Below, in pieces: positions 3,267 to 62,325 of a stretch of 64,000 bases of DNA. This DNA is from Calditrichota bacterium (GTDB lineage: Bacteria; Calditrichota; Calditrichia; RBG-13-44-9; J042): NCBI GenBank assembly GCA_013150955.1, contig JAADJD010000005.1:31096-95095 (forward strand), read 5' to 3'. Position 1 is the first letter of the stretch. Each line of letters opens with the position of its first letter. A program made the translations under genes and the position numbers. Below the pieces are notes generated by a model that saw nothing but the letters and a program-made list of their open reading frames with translations, ran no database searches and had not been told where the DNA came from.

Positions 3267-3300
3267 TCAGTGCAAAAAACAATTAATACGACGTTTATAA

Positions 3301-3328
3301 AAAACCTGCCTTGTGCAGGTTTTTTTAT
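3301..3328 (+). terminator. Rho-independent terminator after tonB
   Basis: AACCTGC-CTTGT-GCAGGTT stem-loop followed by TTTTTTT. Confidence 0.8.
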
Positions 3329-3335
3329 TCCCCAA

Positions 3336-3555
3336 TTTGCATTCGCCTAAGAATCGCACGAGTGAATACGAACAAAAATAATCCCAAAAAATGCGTTAAA
3401 CCACGCATCACGCGAATGAATTCGAAAAAAATCAACAAAATCGCGAATATATCCGTGAAAACATTTTCATCCAGATAGAATCAGGTGCATTCTATTATTT
3501 TCATTGGTGTCCATTCGTGTAATTCGTAGGCGAATGCTTAATCTGGGTTCAAATA
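3336..3555. repeat. Copy of dispersed MITE-like palindromic element (family also at 14.3, 17.2, 22.6, 26.6, 30.1, 43.6-45.7, 56.7, 58.9-59.4, 62.1 kb)
   Basis: Shares ACGAAT-rich core, TGGATGAAAATGT box and AAACCCAGATTATGC-like termini with other copies. Confidence 0.7.
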
Positions 3556-7392: not shown

Positions 7393-7430
7393 AAAAGGCT
7401 CTTGGGTTCTACCAAGAGCCTTTTTAATTT
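7393..7430 (+). terminator. Rho-independent terminator after LysM gene
   Basis: AAGGCTCTTGG-GTTCTA-CCAAGAGCCTT hairpin followed by T-run. Confidence 0.8.
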
Positions 7431-9641: not shown

Positions 9642-9682
9642 GAAGTTTACCGCTGAATATACCTGGAAAAAAACCACACTTT

Positions 9683-9722
9683 GCCGGGATGTTCCCACGG
9701 GGAACATCCCGGCAATTTTTTG
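9683..9722 (+). terminator. Rho-independent terminator after thiolase
   Basis: 13-bp stem GCCGGGATGTTCC...GGAACATCCCGGC followed by TTTTTT. Confidence 0.85.
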
Positions 9723-14320: not shown

Positions 14321-14565
14321 GTGATGCATTAAACCCAGACAATGCGATAAACCTCGAATCACGTGAATGAAGTCAGAAAATATCTGCAAAATCACTAATA
14401 AACCCTGGAACACATTTTCATCCAGACATCATCAAACGGATTTTATTATTTTTATTCGTGTTAATTCGTGTCATTCGTAGACTACTGCATAATCTGGGAT
14501 TATTTTTATTTGTGTTCATTCGTGTTATTCGTGGTTTGATGCATAATCCGAGATATTACGAAAAA
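14321..14565. repeat. Dispersed MITE-like palindromic element (full copy with terminal inverted repeats)
   Basis: TGCATTAAACCCAGA...TGCATAATCTGGGATTA termini; internal ACGAAT-rich inverted halves. Confidence 0.75.
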
Positions 14566-16989: not shown

Positions 16990-17560
16990 GACTTCCCCAT
17001 GAAAAACAATCAGGGTAGCCGCAGGCTTTCAGCCTGCGGTTGCCAGGTTGTAGCCCGACTCTCCAGAGTCGGTAGCGTCCTCCACCCGCCTTGCCGGGGG
17101 AGCACGCTTGTTTGGTTACCGATGTGTTTGGTTCCATTGATCATGGCCACGGTAACCGCAGGCTTTTAGCCTGCGGTGATTTGTTAATCCCGGATTATGC
17201 AATAGCCTACGAATGACGCGAATTAAAACGAATAAAAATAATAAAATTCGTTTGATGATATCTGGAAAAAAATATGTTCCAGGGTTTAATTCTTGCTTTA
17301 ATGTAAAGCTAATTTACCTTACAACCCGCGGGCATAAAACCCGCGACTACCATTGCCTGCTGCTTACGGAAAAAACCATCCAATGCATGTCTACAACAAC
17401 TGCCAACTGCATACTGCATACTGCCAACTGAAATATGGGCATAAAGCCCACAACTACCATTTCCAATTGCCTATTGCCCACTGCCTACTGCCAACTGGAC
17501 ACTGGTAAAGGGTCAGCTGTCCACTGCCAACTGGGTATTGAAAGAAAGGCCGCAGGTGTT
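16990..17560. repeat. Left arm of ~600-bp inverted repeat flanking the 17.6-22.2 kb gene block
   Basis: Reverse complement recurs at ~22235-22935; contains CCGCAGGCT-loop-AGCCTGCGG hairpins, an embedded MITE copy and CTGCCAACTG-type short repeats. Confidence 0.75.
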
Positions 17561-22234: not shown

Positions 22235-22935
22235 GCAATTAACAGTAGTCAGTGGGCAGTTTGCAGTATGCAGTTGGCAGTTGTTGTAGCCACGCATTGG
22301 ATGGTTTTTTCCATATGCAGCAGATAATGGTAGTCGTTGGCTTTGTATCGGTATCCAGTTAGCAGTAAGCAGTAGGCGATTGGCAATGGTAGTCGCGGGC
22401 TTTATGCCCATATCTCAGTTGGCAGTTTGCAGTATGCAGTTGGCAGTTGTCGTAGCCATGCATTGGATGGTTTTTTTCCGTAAGCAGCAGGCAATGTTTG
22501 TCGTGGGCTTTGCACAAGTATCCACTTAGCAGTGGGCAATTGGAAATGGTAGTCGCGGGCTTTATGCCCGCGGGGTGTAAGGTAAATTAGCTTTACATTA
22601 GAGCAAGAATAAACCCTGGAACATATTTTTTTCCAGATATCATCAAATGGATTTTGTTATTTTTATTCGTTTTAATTCGTGTAATTCGTAGGCTATTGCA
22701 TAATCCGGGATTAACAAATCACTGCAGGCTAAAAGCCTGCGGCTACCGTGGCTATAATCAATGGTACGATACACACCGTTAACCAAACAAGCGTCCTCCC
22801 CCCGGCAAGGCGGGTGGAGGACGCTACCGACTCTGGAGAGTCGGGCTACAACCTGGCATCCGCAGGCTAAATGCCTGCGGCTACCGTGGGTTGTGGTAAT
22901 CAAACAAGCATGCCTCTGCAGGGCGGGTACGTCAC
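22235..22935. repeat. Right arm of inverted repeat (reverse complement of 16990-17560), with internal ~170-bp tandem duplication
   Basis: Matches the left arm in reverse complement; segment TCAGTTGGCAGTTTGCAGTATGCAG...GATGGTTTTTTTCCG occurs twice. Confidence 0.75.
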
Positions 22936-26560: not shown

Positions 26561-26790
26561 ACTTAAACCCGGATTTTACATTCGCCTGCGAATTACAAGA
26601 ATTCACACGAACCAAAAGAATGAAATGCATTTGATGCAATCAGGATGAAAATGGGGTCCAGGGTTTGGTAGGTGGTTTGTTAATCCCAAATTATGCTTTG
26701 AACCTCAATTGACGCGAATGAACACAAATAAACCCAGATTATGCATAAGACCACGAATTGCACGAATTCACACAAATAAAATTAACCTGT
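26561..26790. repeat. Dispersed MITE-like element (two partial units)
   Basis: AAACCCGGATTTTACATTCGCCTGCGAATTACA... and ...AAACCCAGATTATGCATAAGACCACGAATTGCACGAAT. Confidence 0.65.
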
Positions 26791-30120: not shown

Positions 30121-30320
30121 TTGCAATTATGCCAGATTATGCATTAGCCTACGAATTACACGAATTAACACCAATAAAAATAATAAAATGCACTGGATTC
30201 TATCTGGATGAAAATGTTTTCCATGAAAATGTTTTCCCGGATATATTCGCTATTTTATTGATTTTTTTCGAATTCATTCGCGTGATTCGTGGTTTAACGC
30301 TCTATTTGGGATTATGCCCA
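30121..30320. repeat. Dispersed MITE-like palindromic element
   Basis: CCAGATTATGCATTAGCCTACGAATTACACGAATTAACAC...TTCGCGTGATTCGTGGTTTAACGC...TTTGGGATTATGC. Confidence 0.75.
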
Positions 30321-41514: not shown

Positions 41515-43599
41515 ATGCCTGAGTTGATACCCACCCGCGAAATCTTTCGACATTTCCCCACGTGGGCTCAGTTGCTGTTTTATGCCATTGCTTTTGGCGG
41601 CACGCTGATCTTTTTCTACGGTGTGTATTCCCGCATTCAGAAATATCGTCAGGGTCGCCCGGAAAACCGATTCGACAATTTGCCCGGACGATTTGTCCAG
41701 GCCCTGACCACCGTTTTGCGAAATAAAACTATTTATCGGGGGGATCCCTTTGCCGGATTTGCCCACAGTCTCATCCTGTGGGGCTTCATTGTCCTGTTCA
41801 TTGGAACGGTGATTGTGTTCATCGATCACGACATCCTGCGGCTGCTGGGGTACCGCTTGCTTCAGGGAACGTTCTATCTGTGGTTTTCTCTGATTCTGGA
41901 TATTTTTGGGGTATTATTTCTGGTTGGATTGGTGCTCATGTGGTTTCGTCGCACCCTGGTCATGCCTTTTAAGCTGGACTACAGCCGGGTGGATCGCAAA
42001 GAAGAAGAATACGATCGCCGGGGGTATGCCACCGATGATGCGGTTTTTCTGGGCCTGCTGTTTTTTATCGGAGTTAGTGGTTTCCTGATAGAAGGTTTCC
42101 GCATTTATGCCGATCAACCGGAGTGGGCCAGATGGTCTCCGGTGGGCTGGTTGACGGCGGAATTTCTCAGTTTTATGCGCCTGAGTCCGGCCACCATCAA
42201 TTTCTGGCATGCCACCACCTGGTGGACGCACGCAGTGGCAGTGATGATTTTTCTGGCCTACATTCCGTTTTCCAAAGCCATGCACATGTTCACCGATTTT
42301 GCCAATCTAATGTTTCGGGATGAAAACGTGCCCCGGCGGTTGCCCGGTATCACCGAGGCGCAAATGAAAGAAGGCATGGGCTACAAAAAAATTACCGATT
42401 TTACCTGGAAGGAATTGCTGGACCTGGATGCCTGCACCAAGTGTGGGCGTTGCCACGAAGCCTGCCCGGCCCGAAGTGCAGGACAACCCCTTTCCCCGCG
42501 GGATTTGATCCTGGATCTGCGCACCTTTGCCGATGCGACCTTCGGCACCAGCGAATGGTTTACTCAGAAGGTTAACGGGTGGGATACCCGCACCGCCGTC
42601 GTCGCCGGAGATGTGATTAAAGCCGAAACCCTGTGGTCCTGTACCACCTGCATGGCCTGTGTGGAGAGTTGTCCCGTGGGCATCGAACATCTGCTTCACA
42701 TCGTGCAGATGCGCCGCACGCTGGTGGACGAAGGTAACATGGATGATTCCCTGCAGGAAGCCCTGATGAACATCGGCGATTATGGTAATTCCTTCGGGCA
42801 ACCTGAACGCGCCCGCGGTAAATGGACTCAGGGACTGGATTTTAAAATTAAGGATGCCCGCAAAGAGGAAGTGGAATATTTGTGGTTCGTTGGAGATTAT
42901 GCCTCATTCGATCCCCGTATTCAGGAAAATTCCAGAACCGTGGCCCGTATTTTCAATAAATTGGGCATCGATTTTGGCATCCTGTATGACGGGGAGAAAA
43001 ACGCGGGCAATGATGTGCGTCGGGTGGGAGAAGAAGGGTTGTATGAAATGCTGGTGGAAGACAATATGGCCGTTTTGCAAAAAGCCAGATTTAAAAAGAT
43101 TGTGACCACCGATCCGCATTCCTACAACACCCTGAAGAATGAATATCCCGAATTTGGGCTGGAAGCGCCCGTTTTTCACTACACGCAGGTGCTGGCCCAG
43201 TTGATTGACGAGGGAAAATTGCGGTTTAATAAGAAGTTGAATTACAAAGTCACCTACCACGATCCCTGCTACCTGGGACGCTATAATCGGGAAACCGAAG
43301 CACCGCGGAAGATTTTGCAGGCATTGGGGGTGGAATTTAAGGAAATGCCCCGTTGTGGTACCAATACCTTCTGTTGTGGGGCCGGGGGTGGTCGCATCTG
43401 GATGGATGATTCCAATATCCAGGAACGCCCCAGCGAGCAACGGATTAGAGAAGCCCTGGCGCTGGGAGAGCTGGATTATTTCGTTGTAGCCTGTCCCAAG
43501 GATTATGCCATGTATTCCGATGCGGTGAAGACCTCGGGAAATGAGGGGAAGATTGAGGTAAAGGACATTATTCAACTGGTGGAGGAAGCGTTGAGTTAA
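41515..43599 (+). CDS. Membrane-bound Fe-S oxidoreductase (N-terminal ~5-TM His-containing cytochrome-b-like anchor fused to HdrD/GlpC-like 2x[4Fe-4S] and CCG domains); candidate Etf:menaquinone oxidoreductase
   Basis: Hydrophobic N-terminal 280 aa with conserved His; CTKCGRCHEACP and CTTCMACVESCP; CCG motifs CYLGRYNRE and CGTNTFCCGAGGG. Confidence 0.85.
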   Translation: MPELIPTREIFRHFPTWAQLLFYAIAFGGTLIFFYGVYSRIQKYRQGRPENRFDNLPGRFVQALTTVLRNKTIYRGDPFAGFAHSLILWGFIVLFIGTVIVFIDHDILRLLGYRLLQGTFYLWFSLILDIFGVLFLVGLVLMWFRRTLVMPFKLDYSRVDRKEEEYDRRGYATDDAVFLGLLFFIGVSGFLIEGFRIYADQPEWARWSPVGWLTAEFLSFMRLSPATINFWHATTWWTHAVAVMIFLAYIPFSKAMHMFTDFANLMFRDENVPRRLPGITEAQMKEGMGYKKITDFTWKELLDLDACTKCGRCHEACPARSAGQPLSPRDLILDLRTFADATFGTSEWFTQKVNGWDTRTAVVAGDVIKAETLWSCTTCMACVESCPVGIEHLLHIVQMRRTLVDEGNMDDSLQEALMNIGDYGNSFGQPERARGKWTQGLDFKIKDARKEEVEYLWFVGDYASFDPRIQENSRTVARIFNKLGIDFGILYDGEKNAGNDVRRVGEEGLYEMLVEDNMAVLQKARFKKIVTTDPHSYNTLKNEYPEFGLEAPVFHYTQVLAQLIDEGKLRFNKKLNYKVTYHDPCYLGRYNRETEAPRKILQALGVEFKEMPRCGTNTFCCGAGGGRIWMDDSNIQERPSEQRIREALALGELDYFVVACPKDYAMYSDAVKTSGNEGKIEVKDIIQLVEEALS

Positions 43600-45995
43600 A
43601 CCCGGATTGTGCATGAGAACCCCAAATGACACGAATGAACACAAATAAACCCAGATTATGCAGTAGACCACGAATTACACGAATTAACACAAATAAAACC
43701 AATAAAATGTATTAGATTATGTATGGATGAAAATGTGGTCTAGGGTTTATTCACGATTTTGTAGATATTTTTTGGTTTCATTCGTGTGATTCGCGGTTTA
43801 GTGCATGATTTGGGATAATAAACAGGCGGATCACCACCCCACAAAATCCCCCCAAATCCGCAATCCGCAATCCCAAATCCGAAATCCGACATCCGCAATC
43901 CGAAATCCAGCATCGTTTCCGGTTGCCCTACAGGCAACGTGGGCAGTTAGGGTGGTGACGTATGGACCCCCACGCGCTGCGTGGGGCTACCCTCTTTTTG
44001 CCCTTCGGGCAAATGGTCTCCAGAGAAAATCCCGCAAAATCATTTCACCCGGATGACACCCACTACCATGAACCCGAACCACCACCACGCAAAATCCCCC
44101 CAAATCCGACATCCGACATCCGCAATCCGAAATCCACCATCCTTTCCGCCCCGAAGGGGCAGCATATGGTAACCCGGGGCACCGCCCCGGGAGTCAGAGA
44201 AGCTTACCAGGAAGAACCCCTGCGCCCTTTAAGGGCACAATAAACCCAGATTATGCGATAGCCTACGAATTACACGAATTAACACAAATAAAACCAATAA
44301 AATGCATTGGATTGTGTATGATTGGATTGTGTATGGATGAAAATGTGGTCCAGGGTTTCTTCGCAATTTTGTAGATATTTTTGGTTTTATTCGTGTGATT
44401 CGCGGTTTAATGCATGATTTGGGATAATAAACAGGCGAACCACCACCCCACAAAATCCCCCCAAATCCACAATCCGAAATCCGCAATCCGAAATCCGAAA
44501 TTTTCCGGTTGCCCTACAGGCAACGTGGGGAGTTAGGGTGGTGCCGTGTGGTCCCCACGCGCTGCGTGGGGCTACCCTCTTTTTGCCCTTCGGGCAAATG
44601 GCCTCCCACGGAAAATCCCGCAAATTCATTTCACCCGGATGACGTCCACTACCCTGAACCCAAACCATCACCACGCAAACTCACCCATCACCCCCCAAAT
44701 CCGCAATCCGCAATCCGAAATTCGAAATCCGCAATCCGAAATCCACCATCCTTTCCGCCCCGAAGGGGCAGCATATGGTAACCCGGGGCACCGCCCCGGG
44801 ATCAGAGAAGCTCACCAGAAGAACCCCTGCGCCCTGTAAGGGCACAATAAACCCAGATTATGCGATAGCCTACGAATTACACGAATTAACACAAATAAAA
44901 CCAATAAAATGCATTGGAAATAAAATGCATTGGATTGTGTATGGATGAAAATGTGGTCCAGGGTTTCTTCGCAATTTTGTAGATATTTTTTGGTTTTATT
45001 CGTGTGATTCGCGGTTTAATGCATGATTTGGGATAATAAACAGGCGGATCACCACCCCACAAAATCCCCCCAAATCCCAAATCCGAAATCCGACATCGGC
45101 AATCCGAAATCCAGCATCATTTCCGGTTGCCCTGCAGGCAACGTGAGGGGGTAAGGGTGGCGCCATGTGGTCCCCACGCGCTGCGTGGGGCTACCCTCTT
45201 TTTGCCCTTCGGGCAAATGGCCTCCACGGAAAATCACGCAAATTCATTTCACACGGATGACACCCACCACCGTGAACCCGAACCACCACCCCGCAAAATC
45301 CCCCCAAATCCGAAATCCGCAATCCGAAATTCGAAATCCGCAATCCGAAATCCACCATCCGCAATCCGATATCCACCACCTTTCCGCCCCGAAGGGGCAG
45401 CATATGGTAACCCGGGGCACCGCCCCGGGAGTCAGAGAAGCTCACCAGAAGAATCCATGCGCCCTGTAAGGGCACAATAAACCCAGATTATGCGATAGCC
45501 TACGAATTACACGAATTAACACAAATAAAACCAATAAAATGCATTGGACAATAAAATGCATTGGATTGTGTATGGATGAAAATGTGGTCCAGGGTTTCTT
45601 CGCAATTTTGTAGATATTTTTGGGTTTCATTCGTGTGATTCGCGGTTTATTGCATTGTTTGGGATAAAAAACAGGTGGGCAACCACCCCACAAAATCCCC
45701 CCAAATCCGCAATCCGCCATCCGAAATCCGAAATCCGAAATCCAGCATCGTTTCCGGTTGCCCTACAGGCAACGTGGGGAGTTAGGGTGGCGCCATGGGG
45801 TCCCCACGCGCTGCGTGGGGCTACCCTCTTTTTGCCCTTCGGGCAAATGGCCTCCACGGAAAATCCCGCAAATTCATTTCACCCGGACGACGCCCACTAC
45901 CGTGAACCCAAACCATCAACACGCAAACTCACCCCTCACCCCCCAAATCCGCAATCCGCAATCCGACATCCGAAATCCGAAATCCGCAATCCCCA
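43600..45995. repeat. About 3.9 tandem copies of an ~600-bp composite repeat (MITE-like element, heptamer (N)AATCCG runs, hairpin-rich GC segment)
   Basis: Unit starts (AAACCCAGATTATGC) at ~43647, 44242, 44848, 45478; periods 595, 606, 630 bp; near-identical internal sequence. Confidence 0.9.
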
Positions 45996-45997
45996 AC

Positions 45998-47470
45998 CTA
46001 ATCCCCCTCCGCCAATCTTTCTTCCGCAATCTTCTGGAACACCTTTCGGTTGGGCTTAATCATGTATTCGGTCTTTTCGGGCCAGGGGAAAAAGTGGTCT
46101 GGAATTTTAAATCCAGGCAAAAACGCCCGGAGCAGTTGACGCATCCGGTCCGCATCCAATTCGGGGGCGTCCTCGTTCATTTCCAGAAAGGCAACCGGGC
46201 GCTGCCCGTATTCAGCATGCGGCACCGGCACCACCAGCGCCTGTTTGACACCTGGCAACCGCAGCAACATGGCTTCTATTTCTTCCGGCTGAATATTTTC
46301 CCCTCCCGAAATGAACATGTTATCCTTACGTCCCACCACCTTTAAATATCCATCAATCGTCCAGCGGCCAATATCCCCGGTGTGGAACCAGCCCAACTCG
46401 TCCACCGGACGATCCAGTTGCCCCTCTTTCCAGTATCCTTTAAACAGGGTCGGGCCTTTTACCAGAATTTCGCCATCGGCAGCGATGTGCACTTCCCGGT
46501 ATGGCAGTGGCTTTCCCGCAGTTAACAATTGCTGCAGGGTATCCCCCGGACGCGTGGTGGTTATCTGCGAACCCATCTCCGTGGACCCATAGGTGGTAAA
46601 CAGCGGGGGCCGAAGATCCAGAGCCTGCTGGATGAGGTGCGGCGGTATGGGACCGCCACCTGTCAATATGCATTTAAGCGACGAACGATAGCCCGGCCCG
46701 GGAATCTCCTGCAGAAAACGTTGCAACTGGGTGGCCACCACGGAAAGGTGAGTAATTTGATGGCGCTCGATGATTTCCGGGGTAATGGCGCGGTTTTCCG
46801 GGATGACAATGGCTCCACCCCCCAGCAAGGCCCGAAAAATAATAGCCAATCCCCCTACATGAAACAACGGCAGGCTGAGCAGCCAGCGATCACCCACTTT
46901 GAAGGGGATGTTCTGATTGGCTCCGCGAGCATTGTAATAATGGTTCGCCCAGGTGTGACAGGCCGCTCGCGGTTCACCGGTGGTGCCGGAGGTGAAAATA
47001 AGCGTCAGTTCTGGATCCGGATGATGCCACGCGCCCTCCACAATCGGTTGTTTTCGAGAAGCAAATAACGATTCCAGCTCCATCAGGGGAATTGTCCAGT
47101 CTGGTGGCAGTGCCGATGCCAGTTCGGCTTCAACGATCAGCGCGTGGGCCTGCACGGTGGCCAGATGCATGCGCAAGTTTTCGATGGGGAGCTTTGGATT
47201 CAATGGCGCGGTTAGAATCTCCCGATACCAGCAGGCCATCAGCAGAACCACCAGCTCCCAGCGATTGCGGCACCAGATGGCCAGACGTTTACCCGGGCCA
47301 AGATCCATTTCCTGTAACCGATCGGCAATTTCCCGGATCATCCGTTCGTATTCCGCAAAGGAGATGATCCGGTCAGGCGTTACCAGCGCCGGGGCCTCAG
47401 GCATCTGGCGTGCCCGTTGTTGTAACATGGGAACCATCCCTGATAGATGCAATTTCAACGCCCCCTTCAT
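45998..47470 (-). CDS. menE: O-succinylbenzoate-CoA ligase
   Basis: AMP-binding motif IFTSGTTGEPR; men operon context. Confidence 0.8.
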   Translation of the reverse strand: MKGALKLHLSGMVPMLQQRARQMPEAPALVTPDRIISFAEYERMIREIADRLQEMDLGPGKRLAIWCRNRWELVVLLMACWYREILTAPLNPKLPIENLRMHLATVQAHALIVEAELASALPPDWTIPLMELESLFASRKQPIVEGAWHHPDPELTLIFTSGTTGEPRAACHTWANHYYNARGANQNIPFKVGDRWLLSLPLFHVGGLAIIFRALLGGGAIVIPENRAITPEIIERHQITHLSVVATQLQRFLQEIPGPGYRSSLKCILTGGGPIPPHLIQQALDLRPPLFTTYGSTEMGSQITTTRPGDTLQQLLTAGKPLPYREVHIAADGEILVKGPTLFKGYWKEGQLDRPVDELGWFHTGDIGRWTIDGYLKVVGRKDNMFISGGENIQPEEIEAMLLRLPGVKQALVVPVPHAEYGQRPVAFLEMNEDAPELDADRMRQLLRAFLPGFKIPDHFFPWPEKTEYMIKPNRKVFQKIAEERLAEGD

Positions 47471-56704: not shown

Positions 56705-57048
56705 ATTAACCCGGATTATGCCTTCGCCTACGAATGACACGGATGAACACCAATAGAAATAATAAACCCAAATAATGCATTAAACCGCGAATCACACGAA
56801 TGAAGCCAGAAAATTTTTGCAAAATCGCGAATAAACCCTGGAACACATTTTCATCCAGATATCATCCAGTGGATTTTATTGTCTATATTCGTTTTAATTC
56901 GTGTCATTCGTAGGCTATTACCTAAACCGGGATAAAATGCACTGGATTCCATCGGAATGAAAATGTTTTCCCGGAAATATTCGCTATTTTGTTGATTCTT
57001 TTCGAATGCATTCGCGTGATTCGTGGGTTAACGCTTTATTTGGGATTA
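56705..57048. repeat. Cluster of dispersed MITE-like elements
   Basis: TTAACCCGGATTATGCCTTCGCCTACGAATGACACG..., TGGATGAAAATGT box, TTCGCGTGATTCGTGGGTTAACGC. Confidence 0.7.
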
Positions 57049-57661: not shown

Positions 57662-58861
57662 ATGGTCAAAGAGAGCGAAACCTATCGGCTGGGCACGGCA
57701 TTGTTCGGGTATTTTATTATTGTTACCCTGATTATGACGCTACTTCCGTTCCGATTTCACCTGCCCACCCGGATCGAAATTCTTTTCCACACCAATGTGC
57801 GGGATTTTCTGCTGAATGTGTTCCTGTTTGTGCCCCTTGGATTTTTGTATCAGTTGAGCCGCCCCAAAAACGCTCCCCTGCGAACGGGAGATGTGTTGCT
57901 GTTTGGTCTGGCACTCAGTGCCGCCATCGAGATGGCCCAGCTGTTTTTAGCCGGCCGGTACACCAGCGTGATTGATGTGGTTACCAACGGTGCTGGAGCC
58001 TGGCTGGGGGCATGGGTGTATCGATTTCTCCGGCAGCATCTTCGGCAGCAGGCAGTGGGATTGATGGCCCTGGAGTTGCCGCTGGTGAGCCTGGTCTATT
58101 TGCTTATCCCGCTGCAATGGTTAAGTGGCATGGCCACCGGCAGGGAATTGAATCGCCTGTGGTTGCTCCTGCTGAACGGTTTTATTGGTGCCAGAGTGTT
58201 CGTTGCCATTTATCAGAATCGCCTGAAAGACCTACCTTCCGTAACGCCGGTTGCCGTTACCCTGGCCGCGGTGGTCTGGTTCATTACCGCCAACCTGCCG
58301 GCCCTGCTGAACTTCCCTCTGCGAATCCTGATATTTGCAACGGCCATCGGGGTAATGGTCTACGGACAGGTGCGTCAACCGGTTCGCATCCATCCTGAGG
58401 ATCGCCGCTTCGAAATCCCGACCCTGCGGAAAATCATCCCTCTGTTTGCCCTGTACCTGGTGTTGCTGGTATACTGGCCACCGGTCATTCAAAAATTTCA
58501 ATGGGACTGGATGATACCTGCCGGCCTGTTCAGCGATGATCCACCCATGCCAGTGGTGCTGGGATTTATTGAGTATCTGGCCGCCTGCACATTGATGGGA
58601 TACATGGTAGCGGAATGGCGGGGGCGTTTACACCGGGGAACGGGATGGGCATTCATCCGCCAGTATGTGTTTATTGGACTGGTGGTACTGGCTCTGGAAA
58701 TCCTGCGCGGCCTGCATCCCCAGCATGCGGCCAGTGTGTTGCGCTTTTTCCTGGCTGCTGCGGCCGGAATCTACGGTTCCATTATCTACCGCCTGCAGGT
58801 AAATACCATTCGAAAAATCCTGTCCACGCGGTCTTTTTCTCCTTCCGCAAATTTGCATTAA
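57662..58861 (+). CDS. VanZ-like family membrane protein with extended C-terminal TM domain
   Basis: VanZ-like N-terminal region (LLNVFLFVPLGF...AIEMAQLFLAGRYTSVIDVVTNGAGAWLGAW). Confidence 0.6.
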   Translation: MVKESETYRLGTALFGYFIIVTLIMTLLPFRFHLPTRIEILFHTNVRDFLLNVFLFVPLGFLYQLSRPKNAPLRTGDVLLFGLALSAAIEMAQLFLAGRYTSVIDVVTNGAGAWLGAWVYRFLRQHLRQQAVGLMALELPLVSLVYLLIPLQWLSGMATGRELNRLWLLLLNGFIGARVFVAIYQNRLKDLPSVTPVAVTLAAVVWFITANLPALLNFPLRILIFATAIGVMVYGQVRQPVRIHPEDRRFEIPTLRKIIPLFALYLVLLVYWPPVIQKFQWDWMIPAGLFSDDPPMPVVLGFIEYLAACTLMGYMVAEWRGRLHRGTGWAFIRQYVFIGLVVLALEILRGLHPQHAASVLRFFLAAAAGIYGSIIYRLQVNTIRKILSTRSFSPSANLH

Positions 58862-59420
58862 ACCCGGATTATGCAGTAGCCTGCGAATGACACGAATTCG
58901 CGCGAACAAAAATAATTCACCCCAAATTATGCGATAGCCTACGAATTACACGAATTAACACCAAAAAAAATAATAAAATACACTTGATTCTATCTGGATG
59001 AAAATGTTCTCTTGGATATATTCGCTATTTTGTTGATTTTATTCGAATTCATTCGCATGATTCGTGGTTTAACGCTTTATTTGAGTTCAATTTTATCGGC
59101 ATGAAAATAGGTTCCGGAGTTTATCCCAGATTATGTATTAAACCACGAATTGCACGAATGAACACAAATAAAATTAATAAAATAAATTGGGTAGTATCTG
59201 GATGAAAAATGGTTTTCGTGATTTATTCGCTATTTTGTGGATGTGTTTTGGTTTCATTCGTGTGATTCGCGGTTAAATGCATTTTTGGGATTTATTGTTT
59301 TTGGTTCCATTCGCCTGATTCGCGGTTTAAAGCGTTATTTGGGATTATTCGCGATTGGGTTGATATTTTTGGGATGGATTCACGCGATTTGTGGTTTCGT
59401 GCGTAATTTGGGTTAAAGGT
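58860..59420. repeat. Array of at least 3 dispersed MITE-like elements
   Basis: Repeated AAACCCGGATTATGC / ACGAATTACACGAAT / TGGATGAAAATG / TTCGTGTGATTCGCGGTT blocks. Confidence 0.75.
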
Positions 59421-62090: not shown

Positions 62091-62148
62091 TCCAAAAACG
62101 AGGTTGCCCGGATTTTGTTTCCGTTGGTGACGAAAGCATCGATCATTT

Positions 62149-62325
62149 TAACCCAGATTATGCAATAGCCTACGAATTACACGAATTAAAACGAATAAAA
62201 ATAATAAAATCCATTTGATGATATCTGGATGAAAATGTGTTTTGTGTTTTATTCACGATTTTGCAGATATTTTTTGGTTTCATTCGTGTGATTCGCGGTT
62301 TAATGCATTATTTGGGTTTAAATAA
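62149..62325. repeat. Dispersed MITE-like palindromic element
   Basis: TTAACCCAGATTATGCAATAGCCTACGAATTACACGAATTAAAACGAATAAAAATAATAAAAT...TTCGTGTGATTCGCGGTTTAATGCA. Confidence 0.75.

Follow-up and report, generated by a model that had tools for sequence, protein, structure and literature searches.

Repetitive extragenic palindromes (REPs) of the GTAG type are GC-rich palindromes of 20–40 bp with a stem of 5–13 bp, a loop of 2–20 nt and an unpaired GTAG at one end, and they favor the gaps between convergent open reading frames (ORFs), near both 3′ ends, or between co-directional ones (PMC3733652). In bacterial interspersed mosaic elements (BIMEs) and other REP clusters (Di Nocera et al. 2013, PMC3733652; Ton-Hoang et al. 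2012, PMC3333891), dimers with a usual spacing of 20–100 bp are reiterated in tandem together with flanking DNA (PMC3733652). Here we describe a 2.4-kb array of about four tandem units of ~600 bp in a 64,000-nt stretch of DNA from Calditrichota bacterium (assembly GCA_013150955.1, contig JAADJD010000005.1, positions 31,096 to 95,095 of the forward strand; hereafter the window, to which all coordinates refer). The array shares with the BIMEs and clustered GTAG-type REPs of E. coli, Pseudomonas and Thermomicrobium roseum its GC-rich palindromes with 8-bp stems and a tail-to-tail heterodimer, whose tag is GTAG in one partner and GTAA in the other, and it likewise lies between convergent ORFs, reaches both stop codons and reiterates the dimer together with flanking DNA. 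Its period of ~600 bp compares with tens to ~150 bp in REP clusters, and its block also holds a miniature transposable element with inverted repeats (MITE) and two microsatellite runs. In having several unrelated repeat families in one gap it resembles the mosaic intergenic regions of Neisseria, which combine REP-type, Correia and other repeats but are not described as regular long-period tandem arrays (PMC3733652). The array consists of known kinds of element in an unusual combination and at an unusual period. The first-pass annotation of this DNA had called such arrays unusual in bacterial chromosomes, which is overstated; it is the long period and the mixed content that are uncommon. We consider it probable that the array is a lineage-specific, non-coding mosaic of three extragenic repeat classes in which a block of ~600 bp has been amplified about four times.

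The array occupies positions 43597–45997 and fills the whole gap from the stop codon of an oxidoreductase gene to that of menE. Families of direct repeats that tile 43644–45997 resolve it into head-to-tail units, ~3.8 copies in all, with start-to-start spacings of 595, 607 and 630 bp. In plus-strand orientation these are unit 1 (43644–44238, 595 bp), unit 2 (44239–44845, 607 bp), unit 3 (44846–45475, 630 bp) and unit 4 (45476–45997), which ends inside its second heptamer run and lacks module M and the last hairpin. Ahead of unit 1 lies an extra partial 5′ arm of the MITE, a 48-nt tandem duplication on the plus strand (43597–43643). When the units, with starts at 43644, 44239, 44846 and 45476, are aligned with MAFFT, mean column identity is 86%, and pairwise identities without gaps are 0.90–0.94. 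Exact repeats of 72–91 bp connect the units, 91 bp being the longest stretch common to any two. The self-alignment proposed in the first-pass annotation shows the four-unit tandem structure, and both the placement of a composite tandem repeat between the Etf-linked operon and menE and its anatomy were right. Of the description as about four near-identical copies, the number holds at ~3.8; at 90–94% identity the units are similar only.

On the plus strand each unit reads, in order: an AT-rich palindrome, a leader with a heptamer run, TTTCCG with hairpin H1, module P, an 85-nt spacer, a second leader with a heptamer run, TTTCCG with module M, and hairpin H6. The second leader and run form a 76-nt direct repeat of the first within the unit. 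This agrees with the earlier reading, in which a unit combines a single MITE-like element with two runs of the heptamer and GC segments rich in hairpins; the GC hairpins are real, with perfect stems of 6–8 bp. A scan of the window for perfect GC-rich hairpins places H1 (GTTGCC-CTACA-GGCAAC, after TTTCCG) at 43922–43938, with further copies at 44508–44524, 45126–45142 and 45757–45773. H6 (GCGCCCT-GTA-AGGGCAC) lies at the end of unit 2 (44827–44847), with equivalents at ~44219–44238 and ~45457–45477. Module P lies on the plus strand at 43968–44013, 44553–44598, 45172–45217 and 45802–45847 in units 1 to 4. In unit 1 it consists of an 8-bp hairpin, CCCCACGC-GCT-GCGTGGGG, followed by CTAC, a 10-nt linker and a second hairpin, TTTGCCC-TTC-GGGCAAA. 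Module M lies on the minus strand at 44147–44191, 44756–44800 and 45385–45429 in units 1 to 3, and in unit 1 it reads CCCGGGGC-GGT-GCCCCGGG, TTAC, a linker and GCCCC-TTC-GGGGC.

Several features of P and M are those of REPs. Their perfect 8-bp stems and 3-nt loops (P, for example, at 44553–44571 and M at 44782–44800) fall within the REP palindrome size range. The CTAC directly 3′ of the P hairpin is GTAG on the minus strand. P on the plus strand and M on the minus strand align end to end in inverted orientation, with three compensatory pair changes in the 8-bp stem; the full-length alignment and these pairing-preserving changes argue that they are a homologous, structure-constrained, inverted pair. 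The two modules alternate in orientation along the array, as do the REPs of BIMEs, which are regularly spaced and have conserved linkers; the spacings here are 206 and 370 bp, and within each unit their tags face each other in the layout of a tail-to-tail dimer. The position between two convergent stop codons is extragenic, as expected of REPs. Variation within the unit is lowest in the hairpin modules: in P, 2 of 51 columns are variable, compared with 17–33% in the spacers and heptamer runs. Across the window, GTAG or GTAA 5′ of the stem, counted as CTAC or TTAC 3′ on the other strand, accompanies 6 of 16 distinct intergenic hairpin types and 0 of 29 genic ones (Fisher p = 0.001). GTAG-tagged hairpins with other stems occur at 17.0–17.3 kb and 22.5–22.9 kb.

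Matches in the window to the Rfam model Acido-Lenti-1 (RF01687) are confined to the three M modules, which score 34.4 bits over the full length of the model (E = 4.4e-4 across the window). Like this family (Weinberg et al. 2010, PMC2864571), M combines an 8-bp hairpin, (C/U)UA, a linker of ~10 nt with UAUGC and a 5-bp hairpin with a UUCG-type loop, so that the layout of two hairpins and a CUA linker is present with UUA for CUA. The loop of the first hairpin is 3 nt in M and 6 in the family, and the host is a MAG (metagenome-assembled genome) of the Calditrichota, in the FCB (Fibrobacteres–Chlorobi–Bacteroidetes) group, not an acidobacterium or a member of the Lentisphaerae. Because the curated gathering score of 37 is missed, we do not file M as a member of Acido-Lenti-1; judged by sequence, the architecture is the same and the two appear related. 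In the RF01687 seed alignment (PMC2864571, supplementary file 183) the first hairpin is followed by CUA(C), and many members from one genome lie head-to-tail, spaced 74, 110, 115, 192 and 200 bp apart. Since the seeds lie in such runs, Acido-Lenti-1 itself would seem to act as a clustered extragenic repeat, and it may be a REP-like repeat instead of a small RNA (sRNA) gene. One of the contig sets among the seeds, NZ_ABCK01, is presumably Lentisphaera araneosa.

The second repeat class is a microsatellite. Tandem Repeats Finder detects eight heptamer runs with the consensus AAATCCG, two per unit and 4.9–9.9 units long. All eight, ~55 heptamers of the form MAATCCG in total, have one orientation, and the same C-rich leader, CACCACCCCACAAAATCCCCCC, stands before every run. 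On the plus strand, run 1 lies at 43854–43908 in unit 1 (7.9 heptamers), 44463–44501 in unit 2, 45072–45112 in unit 3 and 45703–45743 in unit 4. Run 2 lies at 44102–44142, 44697–44751, 45306–45374 (the longest, with 9.9 heptamers) and 45946–45996, the last ending at the menE stop codon. A three-heptamer pattern has 41 matches in the window, all within the array, compared with 0.05 expected from shuffles. The runs are imperfect, with many ACATCCG, CCATCCG and AAATTCG variants, and most indels between units fall within them. Short units repeated head-to-tail and a tract length that varies qualify them as microsatellites.

Correia, ERIC and RUP elements are bacterial elements of the MITE type. 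The AT-rich palindrome of ~190 bp that opens each unit agrees with the general description of bacterial MITEs (PMC3184786) in being short (<300 bp), non-coding and multicopy in intergenic DNA, in having terminal inverted repeats and AT-rich target duplications, and in folding as a long hairpin; it differs in that the array copy is carried passively by tandem duplication. A comparison made through Rfam only gave no sequence relationship to named MITE families. In a BLAST search with one unit, the palindrome is the sole part with copies elsewhere in the window, ~10 of them spread over nine other intergenic gaps, and a motif of the palindrome has 18 matches against 0 expected. When the stand-alone copies are aligned, the element proves to be ~165 bp long, with the ends CCCAGATTATGC...GCATTATTTGGG and terminal inverted repeats TAAACCCAGATTATGC and the reverse complement of GCATTATTTGGGTTTA. 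Perfect 4–5-bp AT-rich target duplications flank five of eight copies inspected (TTTAT at 56767 and 59125, TTTAA at 62150, TTCA at 58921 and ATTAT at 30132). The element has no coding capacity, and the unit 3 copy folds as a single long hairpin (z = -4.1). The four array copies, located by BLAST and, in units 1 to 3, also by alignment, lie at 43644–43820 (unit 1, termini CCCAGATTATGC...GCATGATTTGGG), 44239–44428 (unit 2), 44846–45037 (unit 3) and 45476–45669 (unit 4). Stand-alone copies each have their own 4–5-bp target duplications, whereas all array units have the same MITE flanks, which argues for a single insertion of the MITE, followed by passive copying along with the adjoining sequence. 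The MITE center is a slippage-prone spot, with different perfect tandem duplications of 15 bp in unit 2 (44306–44335), 16 bp in unit 3 (44903–44934) and 17 bp in unit 4 (45532–45565), and none in unit 1. Elsewhere the family fills almost every larger intergenic gap of the window, at times as two or three adjacent or partly duplicated copies, at 3378–3549, 14334–14558, 17185–17255, 22643–22713, 26564–26781, 30126–30315, 56705–57046, 58859–59416 and 62148–62316. A 22-mer from the MITE core has no match in viral contigs, and neither has module M.

The relationships among the units bear on how the array arose. Which units are closest depends on the segment: in the spacer unit 1 resembles unit 3 and unit 2 resembles unit 4, and in the MITE units 2, 3 and 4 resemble one another. 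These mosaic relationships, the range of run lengths and the differing duplications in the MITE center point to repeated unequal exchange and slippage, not to a single recent duplication. The earlier suggestion of an amplification hotspot is borne out by the same mosaic relationships and by the slippage-type indels in the heptamer runs and the MITE center. A BIME-type REP cluster would have captured a MITE and a microsatellite and then have been amplified as a block; the ~600-bp block would have been duplicated and reshuffled by unequal crossing-over or gene conversion between its repeated parts, while replication slippage would change the number of heptamers and produce the small duplications in the MITE center. 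The mosaic relationships block a reconstruction of the exact duplication breakpoints and of the order of events. A second composite repeat in the window shows the same tendency to amplify. Its two copies, at 17011–17502 and 22351–22888 (more broadly drawn, 22249–22889), are inverted and 83% identical. They combine a GGCAGTT/CAACTGC heptamer run with half a MITE and several GC-rich hairpins that bear GTAG tags, and an extra internal tandem duplication is present in the copy at 22 kb.

The genes on both sides allow the locus to be followed into related genomes. To the left, on the plus strand, EtfB and EtfA are followed by the last gene of the Etf cluster, a 694-aa oxidoreductase with Fer4 and CCG domains (41515–43599) whose TAA stop codon overlaps the first repeat. 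To the right, menE (o-succinylbenzoate-CoA ligase, 490 aa, 45998–47470) and menC are both on the minus strand, and the TAG stop codon of menE adjoins the last heptamer run. Pfam assigns GCV_H, Fer4/CCG and Pyr_redox_2 genes to the orthologous cluster of a sister species, and DsrE-family genes are present in the window; this gene content is consistent with the sHdr label given to the left operon. The menE protein is NCBI NOX36218.1 (100% identity), and for the exact flanking proteins there is no second strain on record beyond the source MAG. The nearest relatives are MAGs from hydrothermal deposits, in which the Fe-S protein is 84% and menE 69% identical. In this sister species the gap between the orthologous convergent genes is 397 bp long and 99.5–100% identical in seven assemblies, and it lacks both array and MITE and shows no similarity to the unit that could be detected. 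A single heptamer-like stretch is all that matches the unit in 469 kb of related loci, and a 23-mer of module P that is invariant in the four units has no match in species-representative genomes or metagenome contigs. Absence from the sister gap and the matchless P 23-mer lead us to regard the array as lineage-specific. The first-pass annotation had named a lack of conservation in related strains as grounds for doubt, and the nearest sampled species indeed lacks the array; this speaks against conservation of a function but leaves the reality of the array untouched. A more distant relative with a 74% identical Fe-S protein (locus L019) carries, at 1200–2480, runs of AACCCGA (x7.9), AAATCCA/AAACCCG (x10.6) and CAAGTTC (x4.9) as well as three copies of the GC-rich hairpin ATTCCCGC-GGAG-GCGGGAAT downstream of the orthologous Fe-S gene, the repeats flanking a small minus-strand ORF. 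Intergenic DNA rich in heptamer runs and hairpins may thus be a habit of the wider clade.

As to function, the likeliest effect of the array would be to furnish the 3′ untranslated regions (UTRs) of both convergent operons with a series of stable hairpins, which could protect the transcripts against 3′ exonucleases and partly terminate or insulate transcription. The sequence itself is probably close to neutral, since the sister species lives without it. In a consensus scan, terminator-like sites in the array are weak only and lie on the minus strand, one per unit at the edge of the MITE. The window contains canonical terminator-type hairpins with A/T runs at 3299–3325, 7393–7424 and 9681–9715, which indicates that the organism uses intrinsic terminators. 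The hairpin at ~3.3 kb also gives a weak match to STnc370 (39.5 bits, gathering score 54).

Several observations weigh against an amplified mosaic of REP-type hairpins, MITE and microsatellite. The tag of M is GTAA instead of GTAG, the hairpins of the dimer are ~206 bp apart where 20–100 bp is usual, and a second small hairpin follows each REP-like hairpin, all of which set the array apart from BIMEs and clustered REPs. Neither P nor M occurs outside the array within the 64-kb window, whereas many copies dispersed over the genome are a defining trait of REPs, and Pfam finds no transposase or RAYT (REP-associated tyrosine transposase; Y1_Tnp) among ten small ORFs of the window. The M match stays below the membership threshold of Acido-Lenti-1, and P gives no match to that model. 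The consensus scan finds no canonical terminator directly after either stop codon. Finally, the array is known from one metagenome-assembled contig; its exact repeats of up to 91 bp could mislead a small-k assembly on the order and number of units, and the mosaic could in part be a chimera of strains.

CsrB and RsmZ are RNA sponges, and A(N)GGA is the consensus bound by CsrA. The array could be one long regulatory RNA of this kind, whose minus-strand transcript would titrate an RNA-binding protein through ~55 CGGAUUK heptamers, each with one GGA, set among hairpins, or each unit could be an sRNA gene of the Acido-Lenti-1 type. We regard either form as unlikely. The shared orientation of all eight runs fits such a transcript, and the heptamer is enriched over permuted controls and recurs near start codons in many taxa, which hints at a recognized sequence; the heptamers nevertheless fit the CsrA consensus poorly. 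The Acido-Lenti-1 matches of the three M modules point to an sRNA class of Rfam, but they lie below the gathering score, and the seeds of that family themselves resemble clustered repeats. Conservation is higher in the hairpin modules than elsewhere in the unit, and P and M show compensatory changes. The modules fold as two hairpins on each strand, however, and because the hairpins are palindromes the fold cannot tell the strand, nor RNA from DNA, so that their conservation does not point to RNA. Outside the MITE, the remaining 438 nt of the unit fold no more stably than dinucleotide-shuffled controls, whichever strand is taken (z = -0.98 and -1.12), which rules out a global RNA structure for this GC-rich segment. 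Neither the window nor 20 loci with heptamer runs contain a match at the gathering score of any Rfam family, so the covariance-model search suggested earlier returned nothing at that level, and permissive scans for known RNA families gave only sub-threshold Acido-Lenti-1 matches and chance matches of miRNA type. Of the proposed structured RNA array, local hairpins are all that stands; a global fold and an Rfam family at gathering score are missing. A consensus scan finds no sigma-70-type promoter in the array, although the lineage may use another type, and the sister species does without the array altogether.

An assembly artefact would explain the array if a metagenome assembler had expanded a single unit or shuffled units of another number or order. 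This, too, is unlikely as the source of the array, and we rate it a little lower. The array comes from one MAG contig with no second assembly of the organism on record, exact repeats of 72–91 bp connect the units, and the mosaic could reflect mixed strain variants. Assembler loops, however, yield identical copies, whereas the units differ by 6–10% substitutions and many indels, and standard reads of 150 bp exceed the longest exact stretch, at 91 bp, and can therefore place the units. Synteny with the sister species on both flanks argues against a chimeric join of the contig, and these repeat classes are also duplicated locally in tandem in other intergenic gaps of the contig.

Heptamer runs also occur far from this lineage. 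A 26-nt pattern of four heptamers is found in at least 120 metagenome contigs with GC contents of 0.35–0.72, and viral contigs contain 63 heptamer loci compared with 4, 18 and 0 for three composition-matched permutations (loci collected from metagenomes as L033–L112 and from viral contigs as L153–L215). The idea that any heptamer would be equally common is partly ruled out by these viral counts. Runs outside the array typically comprise 4–5 heptamers with sharp edges and no conserved flanks, and at about one-third of the loci inverted heptamer pairs form long hairpins, as between gcvH and the next gene at L035. A start codon of a long ORF lies at most 40 nt downstream, in the sense of MAATCCG, of 19% of 106 runs, compared with 7% at random positions. 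As a rule, heptamer runs are not accompanied by GTAG hairpins: of 26 hairpins nearby only 2 bear the tag, and proximity is 18% compared with 11% in controls. Since runs elsewhere lack such hairpins, the pairing of the two in the window appears to be a product of local co-amplification.

All six frames of the heptamer are free of stop codons, and it is found in frame inside genes. At L034 (2292–2389) an inverted heptamer pair lies in frame in a DnaE-like ORF (KSEIRNPKSEI...SDFGFRISDF), where the insert lengthens a loop of the DNA polymerase III alpha subunit by ~26 residues relative to the Thermus structure 2hpi_A. At L107 (1324–2568) four runs, each read as QSAIRNPQS, lie in ORFs for cobalamin synthesis (CbiE-like and its neighbors), and the CbiE-like ORF aligns to structure 2bb3_A without a change in length. 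Translated runs in short ORFs come from Acidobacteriota, Desulfobulbaceae, Verrucomicrobiaceae, Phycisphaerae, Chloroflexota, Bacteroidota and Bordetella hinzii. In B. hinzii (CP021397; L238, 3128–3215) a ten-unit AAATCCG/CAATCCG tract is located 12 nt upstream of a GTG start codon; the gene, which lies in a type II secretion cluster, encodes a fimbrial subunit, and an upstream ATG reads through the tract. From its sequence this tract looks like a slipped-strand switch for phase variation; it has the same length in the two assemblies compared. Many short ORFs over heptamer runs (among proteins P0126–P0226) bear the JGI name 'major type 1 subunit fimbrin (pilin)', probably by annotation transfer from fimbrial genes with a run in the called N-terminus, as in B. 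hinzii. In Chitinophaga niastensis a run forms one arm of a hairpin that ends 10 nt before a start codon.

Cyanobacterial short tandemly repeated repetitive (STRR) sequences are comparable intergenic heptamer repeats. The closest parallel is the TAACTGA repeat of Beggiatoaceae, Cyanobacteria and Bacteroidetes (MacGregor 2015, PMC4679880), which likewise consists of two to tens of tandem 7-nt units, is mostly intergenic, often stands before start codons and occurs in distant phyla with no evident mechanism of transfer. MAATCCG differs from it in being free of stop codons, and hence it is also found in frame in genes and as hairpin-forming inverted pairs; the runs in the window, moreover, lie downstream of genes. 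For the MAATCCG heptamer itself, as a DNA or as a peptide string, we found no relevant publication. The distribution of the runs could be taken to mean that (MAATCCG)n is a cross-phylum module, bound by a widespread nucleic-acid-binding factor or serving as a slipped-strand switch, and that the array is a large regulatory or sponge locus; as an account of the array we find this improbable.

Even less probable is a role of the array at the level of DNA, with the heptamer runs as slipped-strand switches or as binding sites that shape the nucleoid or insulate the operons. The B. hinzii tract, with its position before a fimbrial gene and an upstream ATG that reads through it, would be a precedent, and run lengths do differ between units. 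The runs of the array, however, lie downstream of both genes and upstream of no start codon, their imperfection lowers slippage, and we know of no protein that binds them.

The array was taken to be non-coding in the first-pass annotation, and its ORFs to be artefacts; the lack of any Pfam match for ten ORFs across the array, the change of frame between units and the scarcity of stop codons agree with both statements. Stop codons make up ~1.3% of codons on the C-rich strand, and because this strand is so poor in them, long open frames are expected in the array. That the units encode a repetitive protein or several small proteins has a negligible probability: a plus-strand ORF of 93–195 aa does lie at the same place in every unit, but its start codons are ATG, GTG, GTG and TTG and its frame shifts between units, as 2/0/1/1 at a hairpin termed H3 and as 1/2/1 at module M.

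In genome annotation these 2.4 kb are best labeled as repeat DNA, and ORFs called across them should be dropped. The array is a clear case of a REP-type hairpin dimer, a MITE and a microsatellite welded into one amplified long-period unit, in a little-studied lineage of the FCB group in which REP-like elements have, to our knowledge, not been described. The comparison with M also suggests that Acido-Lenti-1, listed in Rfam as an sRNA, may be better seen as a REP-like repeat that occurs in clusters. Among the by-products, the most useful is that runs of one heptamer recur across many phyla, near start codons and within genes, some of them essential. This lead is the one most worth following, although it is for the most part separate from the array, and it would merit study of its own if it proves to be systematic.

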